Source: Clostridia bacterium (lineage in GTDB: Bacteria > Bacillota > Clostridia > Christensenellales > QALW01). Taken from it: a stretch of 64,000 nt of DNA. Position 1 is the stretch's first letter; every line of letters starts with the position of its first letter. Below, piece by piece: positions 20,773 through 49,489 of this stretch. Both the position numbers and the translations under genes were made by a program. The stretch lies in contig JAZQII010000090.1 of NCBI GenBank assembly GCA_045541035.1, positions 9,175 through 73,174 of the forward strand, read 5' to 3'. Under the pieces are notes generated by a model. It worked only from the letters and a program-made list of their open reading frames with translations. It had not been told where the DNA came from and ran no database searches.

Positions 20773-20794
20773 CCGAAAATTTTTCAGTCAAAAT

Positions 20795-20878
20795 AAGCTT
20801 CCCTACGGTAGGATTATCTACACAGGTTTAATGGGTTTAGCTAAAAAGCAATCTCAGCCCCGAAGGACTCCCCAAGCC
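20795..20878 (-). ncRNA. TPP riboswitch aptamer
   Basis: Minus strand GGGGAGTCC..GGCTGAGA..ACCC..AACCTG..GATAAT..CGTAGGGAAGC matches the THI-box consensus, upstream of thiT. Confidence 0.92.
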
Positions 20879-20968
20879 GATATACAGTTTTGTTAAATTA
20901 TATCACAAATATGCTTGTTGTCAAGAAAAATTTATGATACAATATAAGGAAATAAAGAGGTGTAAATT

Positions 20969-42965: not shown

Positions 42966-43751
42966 ATGAAATACGGTTTTATCGGTTGCGGTAACATGGG
43001 CGGTGCGCTTATCCGCGCATTAAGCAAAAAAACAAAAGATATTATAATTGCCGATTTCTTTCTTGAAAAGGCACAAGCGTTGGCAGAAGAATTGGATATC
43101 GAATGGGGTACCAACGATGAAGTTGTTGACAGGGCGGACAGAATTTTCCTTGCCGTCAAACCTCAGATGATGGAGAAAGTTCTTTCTGAATTAAAAGAAC
43201 AGATTCAGGAGAGAAAACCTCTTTTAATTACCATTGCGGCAGGTCTTGAAATTAAAAAGATCGAAGAATTTGCAGGCGGAAATCTTCCCGTTATCCGCAT
43301 CATGCCCAATACTCCCGTTTCGGTTGGCGAAGGACTTATCATGTATACTTCAAACGTTCTTGCGGAAGACAGAGTTGATGACTTCGTTTCAGACATGGAG
43401 TATGCAGGTACGTTAGATAAACTTGACGAAAAACTTATTGATGCAGGCACGGCAGTTTCAGGTTGCGGTCCTGCCTATATGTATATGTTTTTAGAAGCGC
43501 TTGCCGATGGCGGTGTTGCTTGCGGTCTTCCCCGCGATAAAGCGCTTTTATATGCTTCAAAGACTATGGAAGGCGCGGCAAAACTTGCCCTTGAAAGTAA
43601 AAAACACCCCGGTGAACTTAAAGATGCGGTTTGCTCGCCCGGCGGAAGCACCATCATGGGCGTCAAGGCTCTTGAAGACGGCAATCTCCGCGCTTCAGCA
43701 GTAAATGCAGTAGTTAAGGCTTATGAGAGAAATAAAGAATTAGGAAAATAA
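42966..43751 (+). CDS. proC: Pyrroline-5-carboxylate reductase
   Basis: GFIGCGNMG, LAVKPQ, RIMPNTP, SGCGPAY, VCSPGGST. Confidence 0.95.
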   Translation: MKYGFIGCGNMGGALIRALSKKTKDIIIADFFLEKAQALAEELDIEWGTNDEVVDRADRIFLAVKPQMMEKVLSELKEQIQERKPLLITIAAGLEIKKIEEFAGGNLPVIRIMPNTPVSVGEGLIMYTSNVLAEDRVDDFVSDMEYAGTLDKLDEKLIDAGTAVSGCGPAYMYMFLEALADGGVACGLPRDKALLYASKTMEGAAKLALESKKHPGELKDAVCSPGGSTIMGVKALEDGNLRASAVNAVVKAYERNKELGK

Positions 43752-43776
43752 AAATAACGGCTCAAAATGAGCCGTT

Positions 43777-43966
43777 CAGAGCACTGACAAACCCTTACAA
43801 ACATAGCACCCTGCAAAAATTTTGCAGGGTGCTATTTCCTTCGTTACATTCACTTGCAAAATGCGGTCATTTACGTCTGTGTAAACTCCCTTTTTTGCAA
43901 GTTCAGCGCCTTGGCTTGCAAGGGTTTCTCGAACTCTGGCAGTCTGCTGACCTTGCCAGCAGACTG
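43777..43966 (+). mobile_element. ~190-bp MITE, copy 3, flanked by a 20-bp direct repeat of the proC terminator
   Basis: ACGGCTCAAAATGAGCCGTT at 43757-43776 and 43967-43986. Confidence 0.9.
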
Positions 43967-43995
43967 ACGGCTCAAAATGAGCCGTTATTTTTTTC

Positions 43996-44024
43996 TTGCT
44001 AAATTTAAAAAAGTGTGATATTAT
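43996..44024 (+). promoter_or_regulatory. sigmaA promoter
   Basis: TTGCTA-17-TATTAT with TG extension, immediately before the structured region. Confidence 0.65.
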
Positions 44025-44028
44025 GATA

Positions 44029-44232
44029 CTGTCACATAAACTTAATAAGAGTATTGGGGTATTCTTCTTTTTTGGAATATTCTGTCTTTTCGTGTTCACT
44101 GCCGAATTTGATAAAAATGCAAATTCCACTCGGTGAATGCGTGATTTAATATCCCATTTTATTAAGTTTGTGTGACAGCAATCGGAGTTTGCGTTTTTTG
44201 TGTGTGCAACTTTGGTTGTGCACACTTTTTTT
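44029..44232 (+). ncRNA. Candidate structured RNA (150-nt rod-like hairpin + intrinsic terminator), unassigned
   Basis: Nested stems with G-U pairs favouring the + strand, closed by CTGTCACATAAACTTAATAA/TTATTAAGTTTGTGTGACAG; terminator at 44200-44232. Confidence 0.6.
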
Positions 44233-44339
44233 ATTCCCAAAAACAAAGAAAATCCACGAAAGATGGATAAAACTCTACGACACGTAGGTTTATTATTTTT
44301 GGGATTAGGTTTATAATAGTTAACGAAAGAAGGGATAAT

Positions 44340-45308
44340 ATGATATTCAAAGAAAAACGCTATACGTGTTTGCAAGAGATATTTGGAGTTGAAGAAAATT
44401 TTAGTAAATGGCTTGCCTCGGATGATGATGAGGGAGGGATCGAGTACATAAAAAGCGCGTTAGGCGTTGAAGTTGTAAGCGAAGGTACAGAAGTAAGTCC
44501 TACAGGTCATTTTTCAGCAGATATTGTTATGCGAACGTCAGACATTGATGATGAAAGCGAATCTGTAAAAATTATAATTGAAAATCAATATGGAAAAACC
44601 GATCATAATCACCTTAGCAAACTTATAACGTATGCTTTGGAAAATGAAGCAACGTATTCAGTGTGGATTGCTGAAGATGTTGACAGCACTCACAAAAAAG
44701 TTATTGATTGGCTTAATGCAAATACAAATCCCGGACGAGATATTTATTTTTATCTTTTTAAAGCGGTTGTTGAAGAAATTGGTGATTCCAAAGAAAAGCA
44801 TTTTGAGTTGATTCCTATTTGTGAACCCGATGAAAACTCAAGGATCATCAATTCTATAGCAAATAAAGAACTATCCGTTATAAAATTTGCGCAACTTGAA
44901 TTTTGGAAGACTTTTTCAGATCAGTTGAAAAAATCTAAATTTAATATTCGCAAACCTCGACCACAGCATTGGTATAATATATCTGCAGGTTTGCGTGATG
45001 CTGTTTTTTCTGTCTGCATTAACATTAAAGAGAGCAGTGCCCGATTGGAATTTTATATAAGTAACAACGTTGATTTATATAATAATCTTTACAATAAAAA
45101 AGATGAAATCGAAAGTGATATTGGCAGGAAACTTATTTGGGAAAACAAGGAAAATAAAAAATCGTGTAAAATTTGTTATGTATTCCCAAATAAAGATTTT
45201 GATTTTTCTGATGATAAAAAATATATTGAGTATTCAGAAAAAATTATTAAAGAGTTAACTGATAAATTTAAAAAAATAAGTGATTATGCAAAGGAGAATA
45301 GAAAATAA
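44340..45308 (+). CDS. DUF4268 domain protein with N-terminal PD-(D/E)XK (NucS-like) nuclease-like domain
   Basis: ADIV...IIIENQYGKTDHNHLSKLITYA, VWIAE, WLN; C-terminal QLEFW..RKPRPQHWYNIS..L.W; very AT-rich. Confidence 0.75.
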   Translation: MIFKEKRYTCLQEIFGVEENFSKWLASDDDEGGIEYIKSALGVEVVSEGTEVSPTGHFSADIVMRTSDIDDESESVKIIIENQYGKTDHNHLSKLITYALENEATYSVWIAEDVDSTHKKVIDWLNANTNPGRDIYFYLFKAVVEEIGDSKEKHFELIPICEPDENSRIINSIANKELSVIKFAQLEFWKTFSDQLKKSKFNIRKPRPQHWYNISAGLRDAVFSVCINIKESSARLEFYISNNVDLYNNLYNKKDEIESDIGRKLIWENKENKKSCKICYVFPNKDFDFSDDKKYIEYSEKIIKELTDKFKKISDYAKENRK

Positions 45309-48300
45309 TGAAAAAATTATTGTCTTTTATCTTAATACTTGCACTTGCTTTTTCTTGTGTAAGTATGGTAACTTTTACCGTTAGTGCTGAAGATTCTACT
45401 TACGGTGATTTAACTTATACTGTTTCAATTGGCAAAGTTACAATCACCAATTGCAATACTTCCGCAAGCGGTGCATTGGAAATTCCCGCAACTATTGATG
45501 GTTATCCGGTAACAAGTATTGATCCCTTGGCATTCTCTGGTTGCAGCGGTTTAACCAGCATAATAATACCCGATAGCGTTACAAGTATTGGTTATGATGC
45601 ATTCTCTGGTTGCAGCAGTTTAACAAGCATAACAATACCCGATAGCGTAACAAGTATTGGTTCGAGGGCATTCTATGATTGTAGCAATTTAACAAGCATA
45701 ACAATCCCCGATAGCGTTACAAGCATTGGTATTGATGTATTCTATGGTTGCAGCGGTTTAAAAGAAGTACATATAACTGATTTGAAGGCTTGGTGTAATA
45801 TTGAGTTTGGTGAGGTTCATTCTAACCCATTAGGTTATGCACAGAACCTTTATCTTAACGGAGCATTAGTAACCGATCTGATTGTTCCTGACGGCGTAAC
45901 AAGTATTGGTAATTCTGCATTCCTTGGTTGCAACAGTTTAACAAGCGTAACAATACCTGATAGCGTAACAAGTATTGGTTCTTATGTATTCGCTTATTGC
46001 AGCAGTTTAACAAGCATAACGATACCCGATAGCGTAAAAAGTATTGGTGATTCTGCATTCGAAGAATGCAGCAGTTTAACAAGCATAACAATAGGTAATA
46101 GCGTAACAAGTATTGGTGGTTATGCATTCTATGGTTGCAGCAGTTTAACAAGCATAATAATACCTGATAGCGTAAAAAGTATTAATTATCGTGTATTCGA
46201 AGGTTGCAGCAATTTAACAAGCATAACGATACCTGATAGCGTAAAAAGTATTGGTGGTTCTGCATTCTATGGTTGCAGCAGTTTAACAAGCGTAACGATA
46301 CCTGATAGCGTAACAAGTATTGACAGTTGGGCATTCAATGATTGCAGCAGTTTAACAAGCGTAATAATACCCGATAGCGTTACAAGTATTGGTAATTCTG
46401 CATTCTCTGGTTGCAGCAGTTTAAAAGAAGTACATATAACTGATTTAAAGGCTTGGTGTAATATTAAGTTTGGTTATGATTCTAACCCATTAGGTTATGC
46501 ACATAACCTTTATCTTAACGGAGAATTAGTAACCGATCTGATTGTTCCTGACGGCGTAACAAGTATTGGCTCGAGGGCCTTCGCCAAGTGCAGCAGTTTA
46601 ACCAGCATAACAATGCCCGATAGTGTTACAAGTATTGGTGATTCTGCATTCTCTGGTTGCAGCAGTTTAACAAGCGTAACAATCCCCGATAGCGTTACAA
46701 GTATTGGTGGTTATGCATTCTCTGGTTGCAACAGTTTAACAAGCATAATAATCCCTGATAGCGTAACAAATATTGGTGATTATGCATTCGAAGGTTGCAA
46801 CAGTTTAACAAGCATAATAATCCCTGATAGCGTAACAAATATTGGTGATTATGCATTCGAAGGTTGCAGCAGTTTAACAAGCATAATAATACCCGATAGC
46901 GTAACAAGTATTAGTGGTTATGCATTCTATAATTGCAGCAGTTTAACAAGCATAATAATCCCCGATAGCGTAACAAGTATTAGTGGTTATGCATTCTATA
47001 ATTGCAGCAGTTTAACAAGCATAACGATACCTGATAGCGTAACAAGTATTGGTGATTATGCATTCCGTAATTGCAGCAGTTTAACAAGCATAACGATACC
47101 CGACGGCGTAACAAGTATTGGTGATTATGCATTCCGTGATTGCAGCAAGTTAAGCACAGTATACTATAATGGCACCGATGAACAATGGAATAATATTACA
47201 GTTGGTTCAAATAATACGCCGTTACTGAATGCAAGACTTGAAAATTCAATAGCATACGCTACTTATGAGATTTCAAATAATGAAGTAACGATTACTGATT
47301 TTGATACAACAAAAGGCGGAAAAATAGAACTCCCCGCAACGATTGAAGGCTATCCCGTAACAAAGATCGGAACATCTGCTTTTGCGGGGTGCGCGTTGAT
47401 CACGGAGATCATTTTACCTGATTCTATTACAGAAATCGGTGCATCCGCTTTTGAAGAATGTAATTTAATTACTGAAATTGTTATACCTGATTCTGTTACG
47501 GAAATCGGCGCATGGGCATTTTATAATTGCAGTGCTTTAACCGAAATAAACATTCCTGCTTCTGTTACAAAAATCAACAGTTACACGTTTAATAATTGCA
47601 GTGCACTTACTGACGTTTGGTTTGACGGCACAGAAGAGCAATGGGCAAGCATAACCATATCATCAGGTAATACTCCTTTAAAAAATGCAAAAGTATATTA
47701 TAATTTTGATGGGCATCATAAAGATATAACAAAATATTTAACTTACAGAATCTCTTCAGGTAAAGTAACTATTACTGACTGCGATACATCAATTGCAGGC
47801 GCATATTTTATACCTGATACAATTGAAGGCTATCCGGTAACAAGTATTGGTAATTATGCATTCCAAAATTGCAGTAGTTTAACAAGCGTAACAATACCCG
47901 ATAGCGTTACAAGTATTGGCAGTTATGCATTCGATGGTTGCAGCAGTTTAAATGCAGTGTATATAACTGATTTAAAGGCTTGGTGTAATATTGAGTTTAT
48001 TTCTAACCCGTTATATTATGCACATAACCTTTATCTTAACGGAGAATTAGTAACCGATCTAATTATCCCCGATAGCGTAACAAGTATTGGTGAAAGGGCA
48101 TTCGAAGGTTGCAGCAGTTTAACAAGCGTAACAATACCCGATAGCGTAACAAGTATTGGCGCTAGGGCTTTCCAATATTGCAGTAGTTTAACAAGCGTAA
48201 CAATACCTGATAGCGTAACAAGTATTAGTGCTATGGCATTCGAAGGTTGCAGTAGTTTAACAAGCGTAACGATACCTGATAGTGTAACAAGTATTGGCAG

Positions 48301-49489
48301 TTATGCATTCAAGATTTGCAGCAGTTTAACCAGTATAATAATACCCGATAGCATAACAAGCATTAGTATTGATGTATTCTATGGTTGCAGCAGTTTAACC
48401 AGCATAACAATCCCCGATAGCGTTACAAGTATTGGTGATTCTGCATTCTATAAATGCAGCAGTTTAGAAACGGTATATTATCCTGCGACAAAAGCAAAAT
48501 GGAACAGTATTACAATTGGCGGAAATAATGAGGCATTAACAAATGCTGAACTTATTTGTATTGATCCTCAAATCACAGGTTCAAGTGTTGACGTTGGCTC
48601 AACCCTTACCGTTAACTATTTTGTTGAATTTGATTATCTTGATAAATTCAATTTAACTGCAGATGATTTTACTATGCGCTTTACGTCGCCTAACGGTAAA
48701 GTTGAACTTGTTAAAGGAACTTATGATCCTCAAAGCGGTTATTATAAATATCCATATGCAGGTGTTAACCCTCAGTGTATGAATGATAATATTAAGGCTG
48801 AACTTATTTATAATGAAGAAGTTTGTGCAATAAAAGAATATTATAGCGTAAAAGAATATTGTGAAAGACAGATTTCAAGAACAGCAGAACAGTTAGGCTT
48901 AACCGAAACTCAATATAACGCCCTTAAAACTCTTCTTGCCGATATGCTTGTTTACGGAAGCGAAGCACAGAAATACAGAGATTATAATGATTCCGAACTT
49001 CCTGATGTTGACGAATGGATAAGCGAATATAAGAGCACCTTTAAAACTCCTGATGGCGTTAAGAAGGTAACGGGCAATGCTGATGCAGAAAACAAGGTAA
49101 AATCTGTTGGTCTTAATATGGCAAACGTAAACAGAATCTACTTTAAAATGATTCTCAATGATGAAAACGTTGTTATTAAGTTAAATAATAAAGTAATTGA
49201 CCGCGCAGAGTTAATTAAAAATGCTGACGGAACGTTCACTCTTTATTCTTCCGATATTAAGGCAACGGGATTTAATGACGTTCACACCTTAACTCTCACA
49301 CAAGGCGAAGAAGTTATCTCAACAGTTCAATATAACGTAAACGCTTACGTTAAATCAAAGAACGCTGATGAGAATGTAGGAGATATAGTAAAAGCATTAT
49401 CTAACTACGGCGCATCTGCAAAGCGTTATGCAAATTCCTTTAAGACAATTGGCGATAATCAGTTTGAACTTGAAGAGGATATCCTTTAA
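45308..49489 (+). CDS. BspA-type (TpLRR/LRR_5) leucine-rich-repeat surface protein
   Basis: Signal peptide, >30 23-aa repeats LTSITIPDSVTSIGxxAFxxCSS, IPATIxGYPVT caps, C-terminal non-LRR domain. Confidence 0.92.
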   Translation: MKKLLSFILILALAFSCVSMVTFTVSAEDSTYGDLTYTVSIGKVTITNCNTSASGALEIPATIDGYPVTSIDPLAFSGCSGLTSIIIPDSVTSIGYDAFSGCSSLTSITIPDSVTSIGSRAFYDCSNLTSITIPDSVTSIGIDVFYGCSGLKEVHITDLKAWCNIEFGEVHSNPLGYAQNLYLNGALVTDLIVPDGVTSIGNSAFLGCNSLTSVTIPDSVTSIGSYVFAYCSSLTSITIPDSVKSIGDSAFEECSSLTSITIGNSVTSIGGYAFYGCSSLTSIIIPDSVKSINYRVFEGCSNLTSITIPDSVKSIGGSAFYGCSSLTSVTIPDSVTSIDSWAFNDCSSLTSVIIPDSVTSIGNSAFSGCSSLKEVHITDLKAWCNIKFGYDSNPLGYAHNLYLNGELVTDLIVPDGVTSIGSRAFAKCSSLTSITMPDSVTSIGDSAFSGCSSLTSVTIPDSVTSIGGYAFSGCNSLTSIIIPDSVTNIGDYAFEGCNSLTSIIIPDSVTNIGDYAFEGCSSLTSIIIPDSVTSISGYAFYNCSSLTSIIIPDSVTSISGYAFYNCSSLTSITIPDSVTSIGDYAFRNCSSLTSITIPDGVTSIGDYAFRDCSKLSTVYYNGTDEQWNNITVGSNNTPLLNARLENSIAYATYEISNNEVTITDFDTTKGGKIELPATIEGYPVTKIGTSAFAGCALITEIILPDSITEIGASAFEECNLITEIVIPDSVTEIGAWAFYNCSALTEINIPASVTKINSYTFNNCSALTDVWFDGTEEQWASITISSGNTPLKNAKVYYNFDGHHKDITKYLTYRISSGKVTITDCDTSIAGAYFIPDTIEGYPVTSIGNYAFQNCSSLTSVTIPDSVTSIGSYAFDGCSSLNAVYITDLKAWCNIEFISNPLYYAHNLYLNGELVTDLIIPDSVTSIGERAFEGCSSLTSVTIPDSVTSIGARAFQYCSSLTSVTIPDSVTSISAMAFEGCSSLTSVTIPDSVTSIGSYAFKICSSLTSIIIPDSITSISIDVFYGCSSLTSITIPDSVTSIGDSAFYKCSSLETVYYPATKAKWNSITIGGNNEALTNAELICIDPQITGSSVDVGSTLTVNYFVEFDYLDKFNLTADDFTMRFTSPNGKVELVKGTYDPQSGYYKYPYAGVNPQCMNDNIKAELIYNEEVCAIKEYYSVKEYCERQISRTAEQLGLTETQYNALKTLLADMLVYGSEAQKYRDYNDSELPDVDEWISEYKSTFKTPDGVKKVTGNADAENKVKSVGLNMANVNRIYFKMILNDENVVIKLNNKVIDRAELIKNADGTFTLYSSDIKATGFNDVHTLTLTQGEEVISTVQYNVNAYVKSKNADENVGDIVKALSNYGASAKRYANSFKTIGDNQFELEEDIL

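Follow-up and report, generated by a model that had tools for sequence, protein, structure and literature searches.

A rod-shaped leader RNA of gut and rumen Clostridia with a putative terminator/antiterminator switch

A stretch of 64,000 nucleotides (nt) from Clostridia bacterium (assembly GCA_045541035.1, contig JAZQII010000090.1, positions 9,175 to 73,174 of the forward strand; the whole stretch is hereafter called the window) contains at positions 43996-44232 a promoter-like site, a rod-like RNA, a short single-stranded tail and an intrinsic terminator, upstream of a DUF4268 gene. Judged from sequence comparison, this rod-shaped leader is a large, uncatalogued RNA family of gut and rumen Clostridia. 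The window copy is a member of this family, whose conserved features are a promoter, a rod, a terminator, a position 5' of a gene, and a tail with two mutually exclusive pairing partners. With somewhat better than even confidence, the family is read here as one of 5' leaders in which a terminator, an antiterminator and an anti-antiterminator would together form a switch. The elements of the window copy are as follows.

43996..44024, + strand: sigma-70-type promoter-like site from the promoter scan, TTGCTA (43996-44001), 17 nt, TATTAT (44019-44024)
44029..44178, + strand: 150-nt rod of nested stems P1-P4 (RNAfold)
44029-44048 / 44159-44178, + strand: P1, 20 base pairs (bp), from sequence and fold
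44055-44063 / 44149-44157, + strand: P2, 9 bp, from sequence and fold
44064-44090, + strand: 5' side of the U-rich internal loop, 27 nt, opposite 7 nt on the 3' side
44091-44101 / 44131-44141, + strand: P3, 11 bp, from sequence and fold
44104-44110 / 44120-44126, + strand: P4, 7 bp, with apical loop 44111-44119
44113..44127, + strand: segment b, AAAAAUGCAAAUUCC, the 3' part of the apical loop and the 3' arm of P4, complementary to the tail
44179..44199, + strand: conserved single-stranded tail of 21 nt, CAAUCGGAGUUUGCGUUUUUU, the proposed switching sequence
44200..44232, + strand: intrinsic terminator, 11-bp stem 44200-44210/44215-44225, UUUG loop, T7 at 44226-44232
44204-44218, + strand: antiterminator partner of the tail (terminator 5' arm, loop and start of the 3' arm)

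The rod and its family

The promoter, the four nested stems with their U-rich asymmetric bubble, and the 11-bp terminator with T7 that an earlier, sequence-only reading of this DNA had described are all present in the sequence. RNAfold recovered the four nested stems on the + strand at -72.8 kcal/mol (z -8.2), a value that none of 200 shuffles equalled. The - strand reached only -53.3 kcal/mol, indicating that the G-U pairs of the rod favour an RNA read from the + strand, as that reading had supposed. The promoter site has an extended -10 element (TG at 44016-17, TGnTATTAT) and is weak when taken alone, the scan having returned two sites in the region scanned against 1.6 expected. The 5' end of the RNA most likely lies near 44029-44032, with 43996 marking the promoter and not the start of the RNA.

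The rod of the window copy also contains a hydrophobic open reading frame (ORF) of 37-46 codons (43996/44023-44136), rich in Phe and Leu, and hok-like messenger RNAs (mRNAs) are fold-back rods as well. It is nevertheless highly improbable that the element is a type I toxin mRNA silenced by 5'-3' fold-back. The ATG at 44023 lies inside the -10 box, so that an ORF beginning there would not be transcribed; there is no ribosome-binding site; U-rich composition yields such ORFs; and in the 90 members with a canonical P4, the longest ORF through P4 was in frame 1, 0 or 2 in 54, 32 and 4 cases, respectively. A leader peptide was likewise rejected, as no reading frame is conserved.

How far does the family extend? 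Three partial paralogues were found in the same genome by BLASTN, each with the same plan of promoter, rod, tail and terminator, and a BLASTN search of relatives gave matches in 23 of 61 genomes, the genome under study included. A covariance model, R1, built from 24 instances (alignment A3), detected 4 copies in this genome. Within the taxonomic family it matched 69 times, in 22 of 30 genomes, with 1-11 matches in each positive genome; within the order it was positive in 22 of 151 genomes, from 15 of 96 genera. A scan for a 17-base tail motif, with one genome per species, returned at least 120 stretches, 80 of which were fetched; R1 members were present in 77 of these loci, and the other three (titled Cytophagales, Chloroherpeton and Alphaproteobacteria) were set aside as chance matches. 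The 77 member loci are titled as metagenome-assembled genomes of Clostridia, Eubacteriales, Oscillospiraceae, Acutalibacteraceae, Ruminococcaceae, Christensenellaceae and Lachnospiraceae, one being titled Eubacterium sp. CAG:180, and the sources, where named, are a ruminant gut site, rabbit and a human cohort. In total, 152 named instances correspond to 149 distinct sequences, some loci being duplicated under two identifiers (e.g. L076/L170). Among viral contigs, 4 of 14 matches to the tail pattern were family members, three of the four with identical scores.

Several further features of the members were observed. In 10 of 60 pattern-fetched loci (L050-L112), the 700 nt upstream of the member include a co-oriented transfer RNA (tRNA) gene, and upstream tRNA genes are also found at L020, L023, L024 and L032; this position hints that the units may occupy genomic islands or hot spots of integration. 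Tandem pairs of complete units were seen at L089 (531-1059), L187 (151-663), L029 (166-602), L025 (371-1050), L068 (135-888) and L192 (158-855), with a remnant mini-ORF between the units of some pairs and an ORF of 57-82 codons, in some cases of MazE/AbrB fold, in others. Each unit of the L089 pair has its own promoter, and the first unit at L187 is a degenerate copy without a clear promoter. In most long members, the 5' internal loop (A5 columns ~66-93) contains a small hairpin, GGGnAUAUUAUACCC, and a U-run after it, of which window positions 44064-44090 are a degenerate form; this hairpin and U-run look like a weak terminator or pause hairpin.

The structure of the RNA is conserved across the family, as the homologue comparison proposed in the sequence-only reading was meant to establish. 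In A3, changes on both sides were observed at 10 of 12 pairs of P1 and at 7 of 10 pairs of the terminator; overall, 92.9% of cells were paired, compared with 28-45% when the partner was slid, and 0 of 500 shuffles reached the observed scores. In per-sequence folds, 141 of 144 distinct rods close with P1, and the + strand was more stable than the - strand in 136 of the 144, by a mean difference of 10.2 kcal/mol. P2 and P3 could not be aligned family-wide by MAFFT, and their support comes from the per-sequence folds and from a comparison with a related strain. Six sequencing runs were listed, four of them with part of the stretch and all as contigs; contigs of a related strain from runs X3 and X4 carry the same locus with three compatible single changes in P3 and the following three compensatory double changes.

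44095 T>C with 44137 A>G, P3, contigs of runs X3 and X4
44098 A>G with 44134 T>C, P3, contigs of runs X3 and X4
44099 C>T with 44133 G>A, P3, contigs of runs X3 and X4

Because the stems vary in sequence between copies yet stay paired, this pattern is evidence for structure at the RNA level. It bears directly on the idea that the element acts as DNA, as an inverted-repeat mobile element (MITE), an inverton or a recombination site. A long inverted repeat in many copies with a patchy distribution would suit such an element, as would the position of 10 of 60 members just 3' of a co-oriented tRNA gene. However, mobile-element ends conserve sequence, whereas the arms here differ between copies and remain complementary; moreover, the G-U pairs stabilize one strand specifically, and a promoter and a terminator belong to the conserved unit. 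A DNA-level element is thus considered very improbable.

The suggestion that the RNA matches no recognised riboswitch was borne out by Rfam 15. The window copy gave no relevant match, the best being E 0.07 to unrelated eukaryotic models (43700-44400 searched permissively, the window at gathering score), and the sole matches of six typical members were to neighbouring tRNA genes. Elsewhere in the window, a thiamine pyrophosphate (TPP) riboswitch at 20783-20884 (- strand, 66 bits) is the sole Rfam match at gathering score. The sequence-only reading had also offered a divergent 6S-like RNA, which would bind RNA polymerase. The rod shape with an internal loop agrees with this, and the 6S RNA of the genome itself is unaccounted for: RF00013 gave no match at E up to 1 in this genome, which is 96% complete, so that the organism's 6S RNA is either missing from the assembly, very divergent or absent. 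RF00013 also had no match in the window at gathering score or in 43700-44400 at E up to 10. Four copies are present here and 1-11 in relatives, where one or two stand-alone copies would be expected of a 6S RNA; the members occupy a leader position with an ORF directly downstream; and the bubble is strongly asymmetric (27 nt versus 7 nt). The element is almost certainly not a 6S-like RNA.

The promoter is conserved together with the rod. In 148 upstream regions, a -35 element (TTGAnA), 17 nt and TGnTATAAT precede the first position of the model at a fixed distance, placing the predicted transcription start at the first bases of P1. The -10 element has at least five of six matches in 138 of the 148 members and the extended TG in 102; the -35 element has at least four of six matches in 106, with a 17-nt spacer in 88 of those. 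The arrangement of a structured RNA with its own promoter and terminator, first noticed at the window locus, is therefore a property of the family. Downstream genes were assigned by a heuristic rule, an ORF with a ribosome-binding-like motif, which yielded one for 137 of 150 instances. From the U-tract to the next start codon the median distance is 21 nt; 100 of the 137 members have a gap of no more than 40 nt, and 15 have a gap of more than 100 nt. So short a median gap does not accommodate a separate promoter, and the RNA is thus identified as the 5' leader of the next gene. The window copy, with 107 nt from terminator to gene, is a long-gap case. Between the two stands an extra leader module.

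44238..44317, + strand: extra leader module, two small hairpins between terminator and gene, with a T-run after the second
44310-44339: promoter-like site from the promoter scan, between the terminator and the DUF4268 gene

The module folds weakly (z -1.6). It is 99% identical to a stretch 3' of the paralogous leader of contig C57 (L003 1640-1720) and occurs nowhere else in the genome; the rods directly 5' of the two shared 80-nt modules are only 73-75% alike. Such near-identity beside diverged rods suggests that the part next to the gene was exchanged recently, or that the arms of the rod change rapidly.

The two partners of the tail

The tail between rod and terminator is nearly invariant in A3 and in A6. 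As the tail was fixed by the search pattern in the 77 motif-derived loci, covariation was counted instead on A6, which comprises 73 covariance-model matches at loci obtained by BLASTN or by the model, none picked by the tail pattern. The comparison suggests that the helices of the RNA form a chain, a:b (P4), b:c, c:d (the antiterminator) and d:e (the terminator), in which the tail is segment c.

The first partner of the tail is segment b. In the window copy, GGAGUUUGCGUUUUU (44184-44198) is complementary to 44113-44127 over 15 contiguous pairs, and the duplex was calculated at -20.1 kcal/mol, compared with -11.2 kcal/mol for shuffled tails. The A6 alignment has this helix paired in about 95% of cells, with both-side changes at 8 of its 15 pairs; 18-24 of the 73 rows are gaps there, the short variants being unaligned in P4. 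Over 72 members, the best duplex of the tail inside the rod averaged -18.3 kcal/mol, compared with -11.1 kcal/mol for shuffled tails; the cognate duplex was better than the shuffled mean in 71 of 72 members (the exception being L201) and better than all 50 shuffles in 44 of 72. The tail pairing is also preserved, with different letters, in the short variants (145-170 nt).

The second partner is the terminator itself. The segment CAAUCGGAGUU, together with GCGU further on, pairs with the terminator 5' arm, the loop and the first bases of the 3' arm. On A6, 83-90% of cells of this antiterminator were paired, with both-side changes at 9 of 15 pairs. When nascent forms were cut before the base of the terminator 3' arm, tail-terminator pairing was observed in 73 of 73 members; the nascent antiterminator averaged -14.8 kcal/mol, compared with -7.1 kcal/mol for shuffled tails, and in 66 of the 73 it was better than 29 or all 30 of the shuffles. 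For the terminator state, the mean over the same members was -14.7 kcal/mol, near the value of the antiterminator, and the corresponding energies for the window copy are -13.2 kcal/mol (antiterminator, 44178-44219) and -16.0 kcal/mol (terminator). A different antiterminator, between the arms of P1 and those of the terminator, was looked for by eye and discarded, there being no consistent complementarity.

These two conserved and exclusive partners, and the nearly equal energies of the two states, are left unexplained if the rod is a constitutive 5' module that only shields the mRNA from decay, behind which a leaky terminator serves as an insulator and nothing is sensed. P1 does begin at the predicted first transcribed base, and no single function is common to the downstream genes, both of which agree with such a module; the reading is regarded as distinctly unlikely.

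The same pairings were weighed against a stand-alone small RNA (sRNA) acting in trans, in which the rod of about 200 nt and its tail would pair with target mRNAs and the downstream genes would be unrelated. Such an sRNA is suggested by the RNA's own conserved promoter and strong terminator, by a conserved tail that is unpaired in the terminator state, by the promoter-like site between the window RNA and the next gene, and by the presence of a promoter for each unit of a tandem pair. The median distance from U-tract to start codon, however, leaves no space for another promoter, and the complements of the tail lie within the same RNA and co-vary with it copy by copy, even in one genome: the C6 copy of the genome under study has GUG in the tail and CAC in the loop (segment b), whereas the other copies have GCG and UGC. 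This difference speaks for pairing within each molecule. A stand-alone sRNA is accordingly thought unlikely; of the two possibilities raised in the sequence-only reading, sRNA or attenuating leader, the leader gained support from the short gap and the conserved antiterminator. A dual role, as attenuator and released sRNA, is conceivable.

In the favoured reading of a switching leader, transcription would start at the first base of the long closing stem P1, and the nascent RNA would fold first into the rod, with P4 (a:b) at its tip. The emerging tail (c) could then dock on the A-rich apical loop and invade P4 (b:c), as a pseudoknot or by strand invasion. If the tail is held by b or by some factor, the terminator would form and an RNA of about 200 nt would be released. 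If the tail is free, it would pair with the emerging terminator strand (c:d) before the terminator 3' arm is made, and read-through would follow; at the window locus, read-through would reach the inserted DUF4268/PDC-S11 gene and the BspA-type leucine-rich-repeat (LRR) gene described below. The balance might be tipped at the loop or tail by a ligand, an ion, a protein or an RNA, all of which are possible. We infer that the pairings switch termination, that they do so in this direction, and that an effector exists.

Several observations weigh against this reading. In the full fold of tail plus terminator, the antiterminator pairs were used in only 34 of 73 members. On geometric reasoning, a linker of 8-9 nt is too short for all 15 bp of the b:c helix to form while the 40-bp rod stays straight and intact; the rod would have to bend at the P2-P3 junction, or only the loop part would dock. 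A6 columns 227 and 239 covary strongly without forming a sensible helix and look like a subfamily signature and not a base pair, and part of the covariation may be phylogenetic, given that A5 and A6 were fitted to the model and that the sequences are related. No second NusG-like protein was found, with one PF02357 match per genome in all 30 genomes of the taxonomic family. At the window locus, the 107-nt gap and the promoter-like site at 44310-44339 mean that the DUF4268 gene could be transcribed independently. The sole RNA run (contigs, 5% of sampled words) covers only the repeat at 43849-43967 and LRR repeats, and is uninformative on expression of the leader.

The genes behind the leaders

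Two genes follow the window leader.

44340..45308, + strand: DUF4268 gene, a PADLOC PDC-S11 candidate phage-defence gene (Pfam E 6e-25; PADLOC E 7e-65, whole length)
45308..49489, + strand: gene of a BspA-type leucine-rich-repeat surface protein (Pfam LRR_5, E 4e-261)

A functional pairing of the RNA with the DUF4268 protein, the RNA being its partner or antitoxin, had been put forward from the sequence. The two are adjacent in the window and the protein matches a candidate defence family. However, of the 137 members with an assigned downstream ORF, only the window copy is followed by a DUF4268 protein, and the remaining 136 ORFs are unlike it and heterogeneous; the other three copies of the same genome precede different genes; and, as regards a type III-like pair, no tandem repeats are present. 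In the run X3 contig of a related strain, 44318 is joined to 45307 with 27 other letters between, so that the DUF4268 gene is absent while the leader is kept; these letters resemble the ribosome-binding segment that precedes the LRR gene in the C57 paralogue. The pairing is therefore scarcely credible. With the leader standing beside the LRR gene in that contig, the DUF4268 gene is best regarded as an insertion between the leader and the BspA-LRR gene. LRR_5 genes also stand behind seven other family members, and the BspA-LRR gene is likely, from this arrangement, to be the original gene served by the window leader.

On the other side of the leader, directly 5' of its promoter, lies a 191-nt repeat (43777-43967) with at least 40 copies in the genome, many of them at contig ends. 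On each side of it, at 43757-76 and 43968-87, stands a 20-nt copy of the proC terminator hairpin, the two being identical. Copies of the repeat elsewhere in the genome are likewise found between two hairpins, with look-alike hairpins in three of the four other copies for which both flanks were seen, and a related-strain contig joins 43776 to 43988 without the repeat. The repeat may be a small mobile element that targets and duplicates terminator hairpins.

Across the family, 138 downstream ORFs, many of them cut at the end of the fetched DNA, were compared with Pfam, with the following assignments.

BspA-type LRR_5: 7 ORFs
AMP-binding: 7 ORFs, one locus counted twice
Zinc-ribbon membrane proteins: 5 ORFs
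Collagen repeats: 4 ORFs
MazE/AbrB fold: 3 ORFs
GT2, EcoRI methylase, SHOCT, YpsA, DUF4230 and SH3_3: 2 ORFs each
LiaF, SPFH, CHAP, dockerin, C-type lectin, Ltp lipoprotein, HNH, HTH_3, peptidase M13 and others: 1 ORF each

No Pfam family was found for 80 of the 138, and a signal-peptide-like start was assigned by a crude rule to 59 of 137. An acyl-CoA-ligase-like AMP-binding gene lies directly 3' of the leader at L031, L032, L062, L076/L170, L114 and L201; the AMP-binding member that was scanned matches long-chain-fatty-acid--CoA ligase models below their cut-offs. AMP-binding proteins are the most frequent enzymes among the genes served, which may be a clue to the signal.

As far as sequence comparison can tell, competition between their hairpins probably allows the leaders to control whether transcription continues into accessory surface and defence genes. 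A more tentative proposal is that they constitute a new riboswitch-like class, in which docking of the tail on the apical loop of the rod, under the control of a small molecule, an ion, a protein or an RNA, would be the sensing step and the whole would act as a portable cassette of promoter and attenuator, placing horizontally acquired surface, envelope and defence genes under one common signal. The grounds for the proposal are a patchy spread over many taxonomic families, a frequent location just 3' of tRNA genes and, at the window locus, the defence gene inserted after the leader.

If the favoured reading is true, one uncatalogued RNA element controls dozens of unrelated accessory genes in many uncultured gut and rumen Clostridia, among them genes for BspA-type and collagen-like surface proteins, envelope proteins, methylases and a candidate defence protein, and the identity of the signal would reveal what these bacteria sense before a change of surface. 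It would also represent a new attenuator architecture, in which the tip of a rod starting at +1 and the terminator compete for the same tail. In genome annotation, the family accounts for many of the long intergenic "inverted repeats" in these genomes and may serve as a marker of accessory-gene units.

Comparison with known systems

What relates this family to described RNAs, and what sets it apart? A full-text literature search returned no description of this RNA. Four tail strings were absent from eight supplementary files of Fremin & Bhatt 2021 (PMC8040213), which hold part of that catalogue, and the family may be among its thousands of unnamed candidates.

With 6S RNA (RF00013), the family shares a rod-like form, a similar size and an internal loop, and it differs in covariance model, copy number and genomic context. 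LoaP and RfaH are NusG paralogues that cause processive antitermination, and they act on leaders with terminators before horizontally acquired surface-related genes. In contrast, genomes of the taxonomic family have one NusG-domain gene and no paralogue (30 of 30), and the RNA carries its own antiterminator.

The expression platforms of riboswitches resemble the family in that a 3' strand is common to a long-range pairing and to the antiterminator, in that the two states lie near each other in energy, and in the occurrence of tandem units. Cyclic di-GMP (c-di-GMP) riboswitches, moreover, occur in many copies per genome before varied genes, as this family does; no match to c-di-GMP-I (RF01051) was found in the genome under study, a search to which control genomes also barely responded. 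Unlike riboswitches, the family has no conserved multi-helix junction, obvious ligand pocket or Rfam riboswitch match; its conserved bases are mostly explained by the competing helices, and the gene content suggests no ligand.

The closest likeness is to the multi-hairpin attenuators of Firmicutes, in which a series of helices that exclude one another leads to an intrinsic terminator before an ORF and an upstream hairpin gates the antiterminator. The PyrR-controlled pyr leaders of Bacillus subtilis are attenuators of this kind, with anti-antiterminator, antiterminator and terminator. The L20-controlled infC leader of the same species is about 200 nt long (PMC1865079). As in this class, a terminator with a U-run lies in the leader, with the start codon within 40 nt in 100 of 137 members (107 nt in the window copy), and a helix that excludes the terminator is conserved, with 83-90% of cells paired and formation in all 73 truncated forms. 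The family nevertheless differs from the known Firmicutes attenuators in three respects: 1) it has no sequence or Rfam relationship to them, 2) its regulon would be a heterogeneous set of accessory genes and not one pathway, and 3) its sensor would be a 40-bp rod that begins at +1, the distant apical loop of which pairs with the switching strand.

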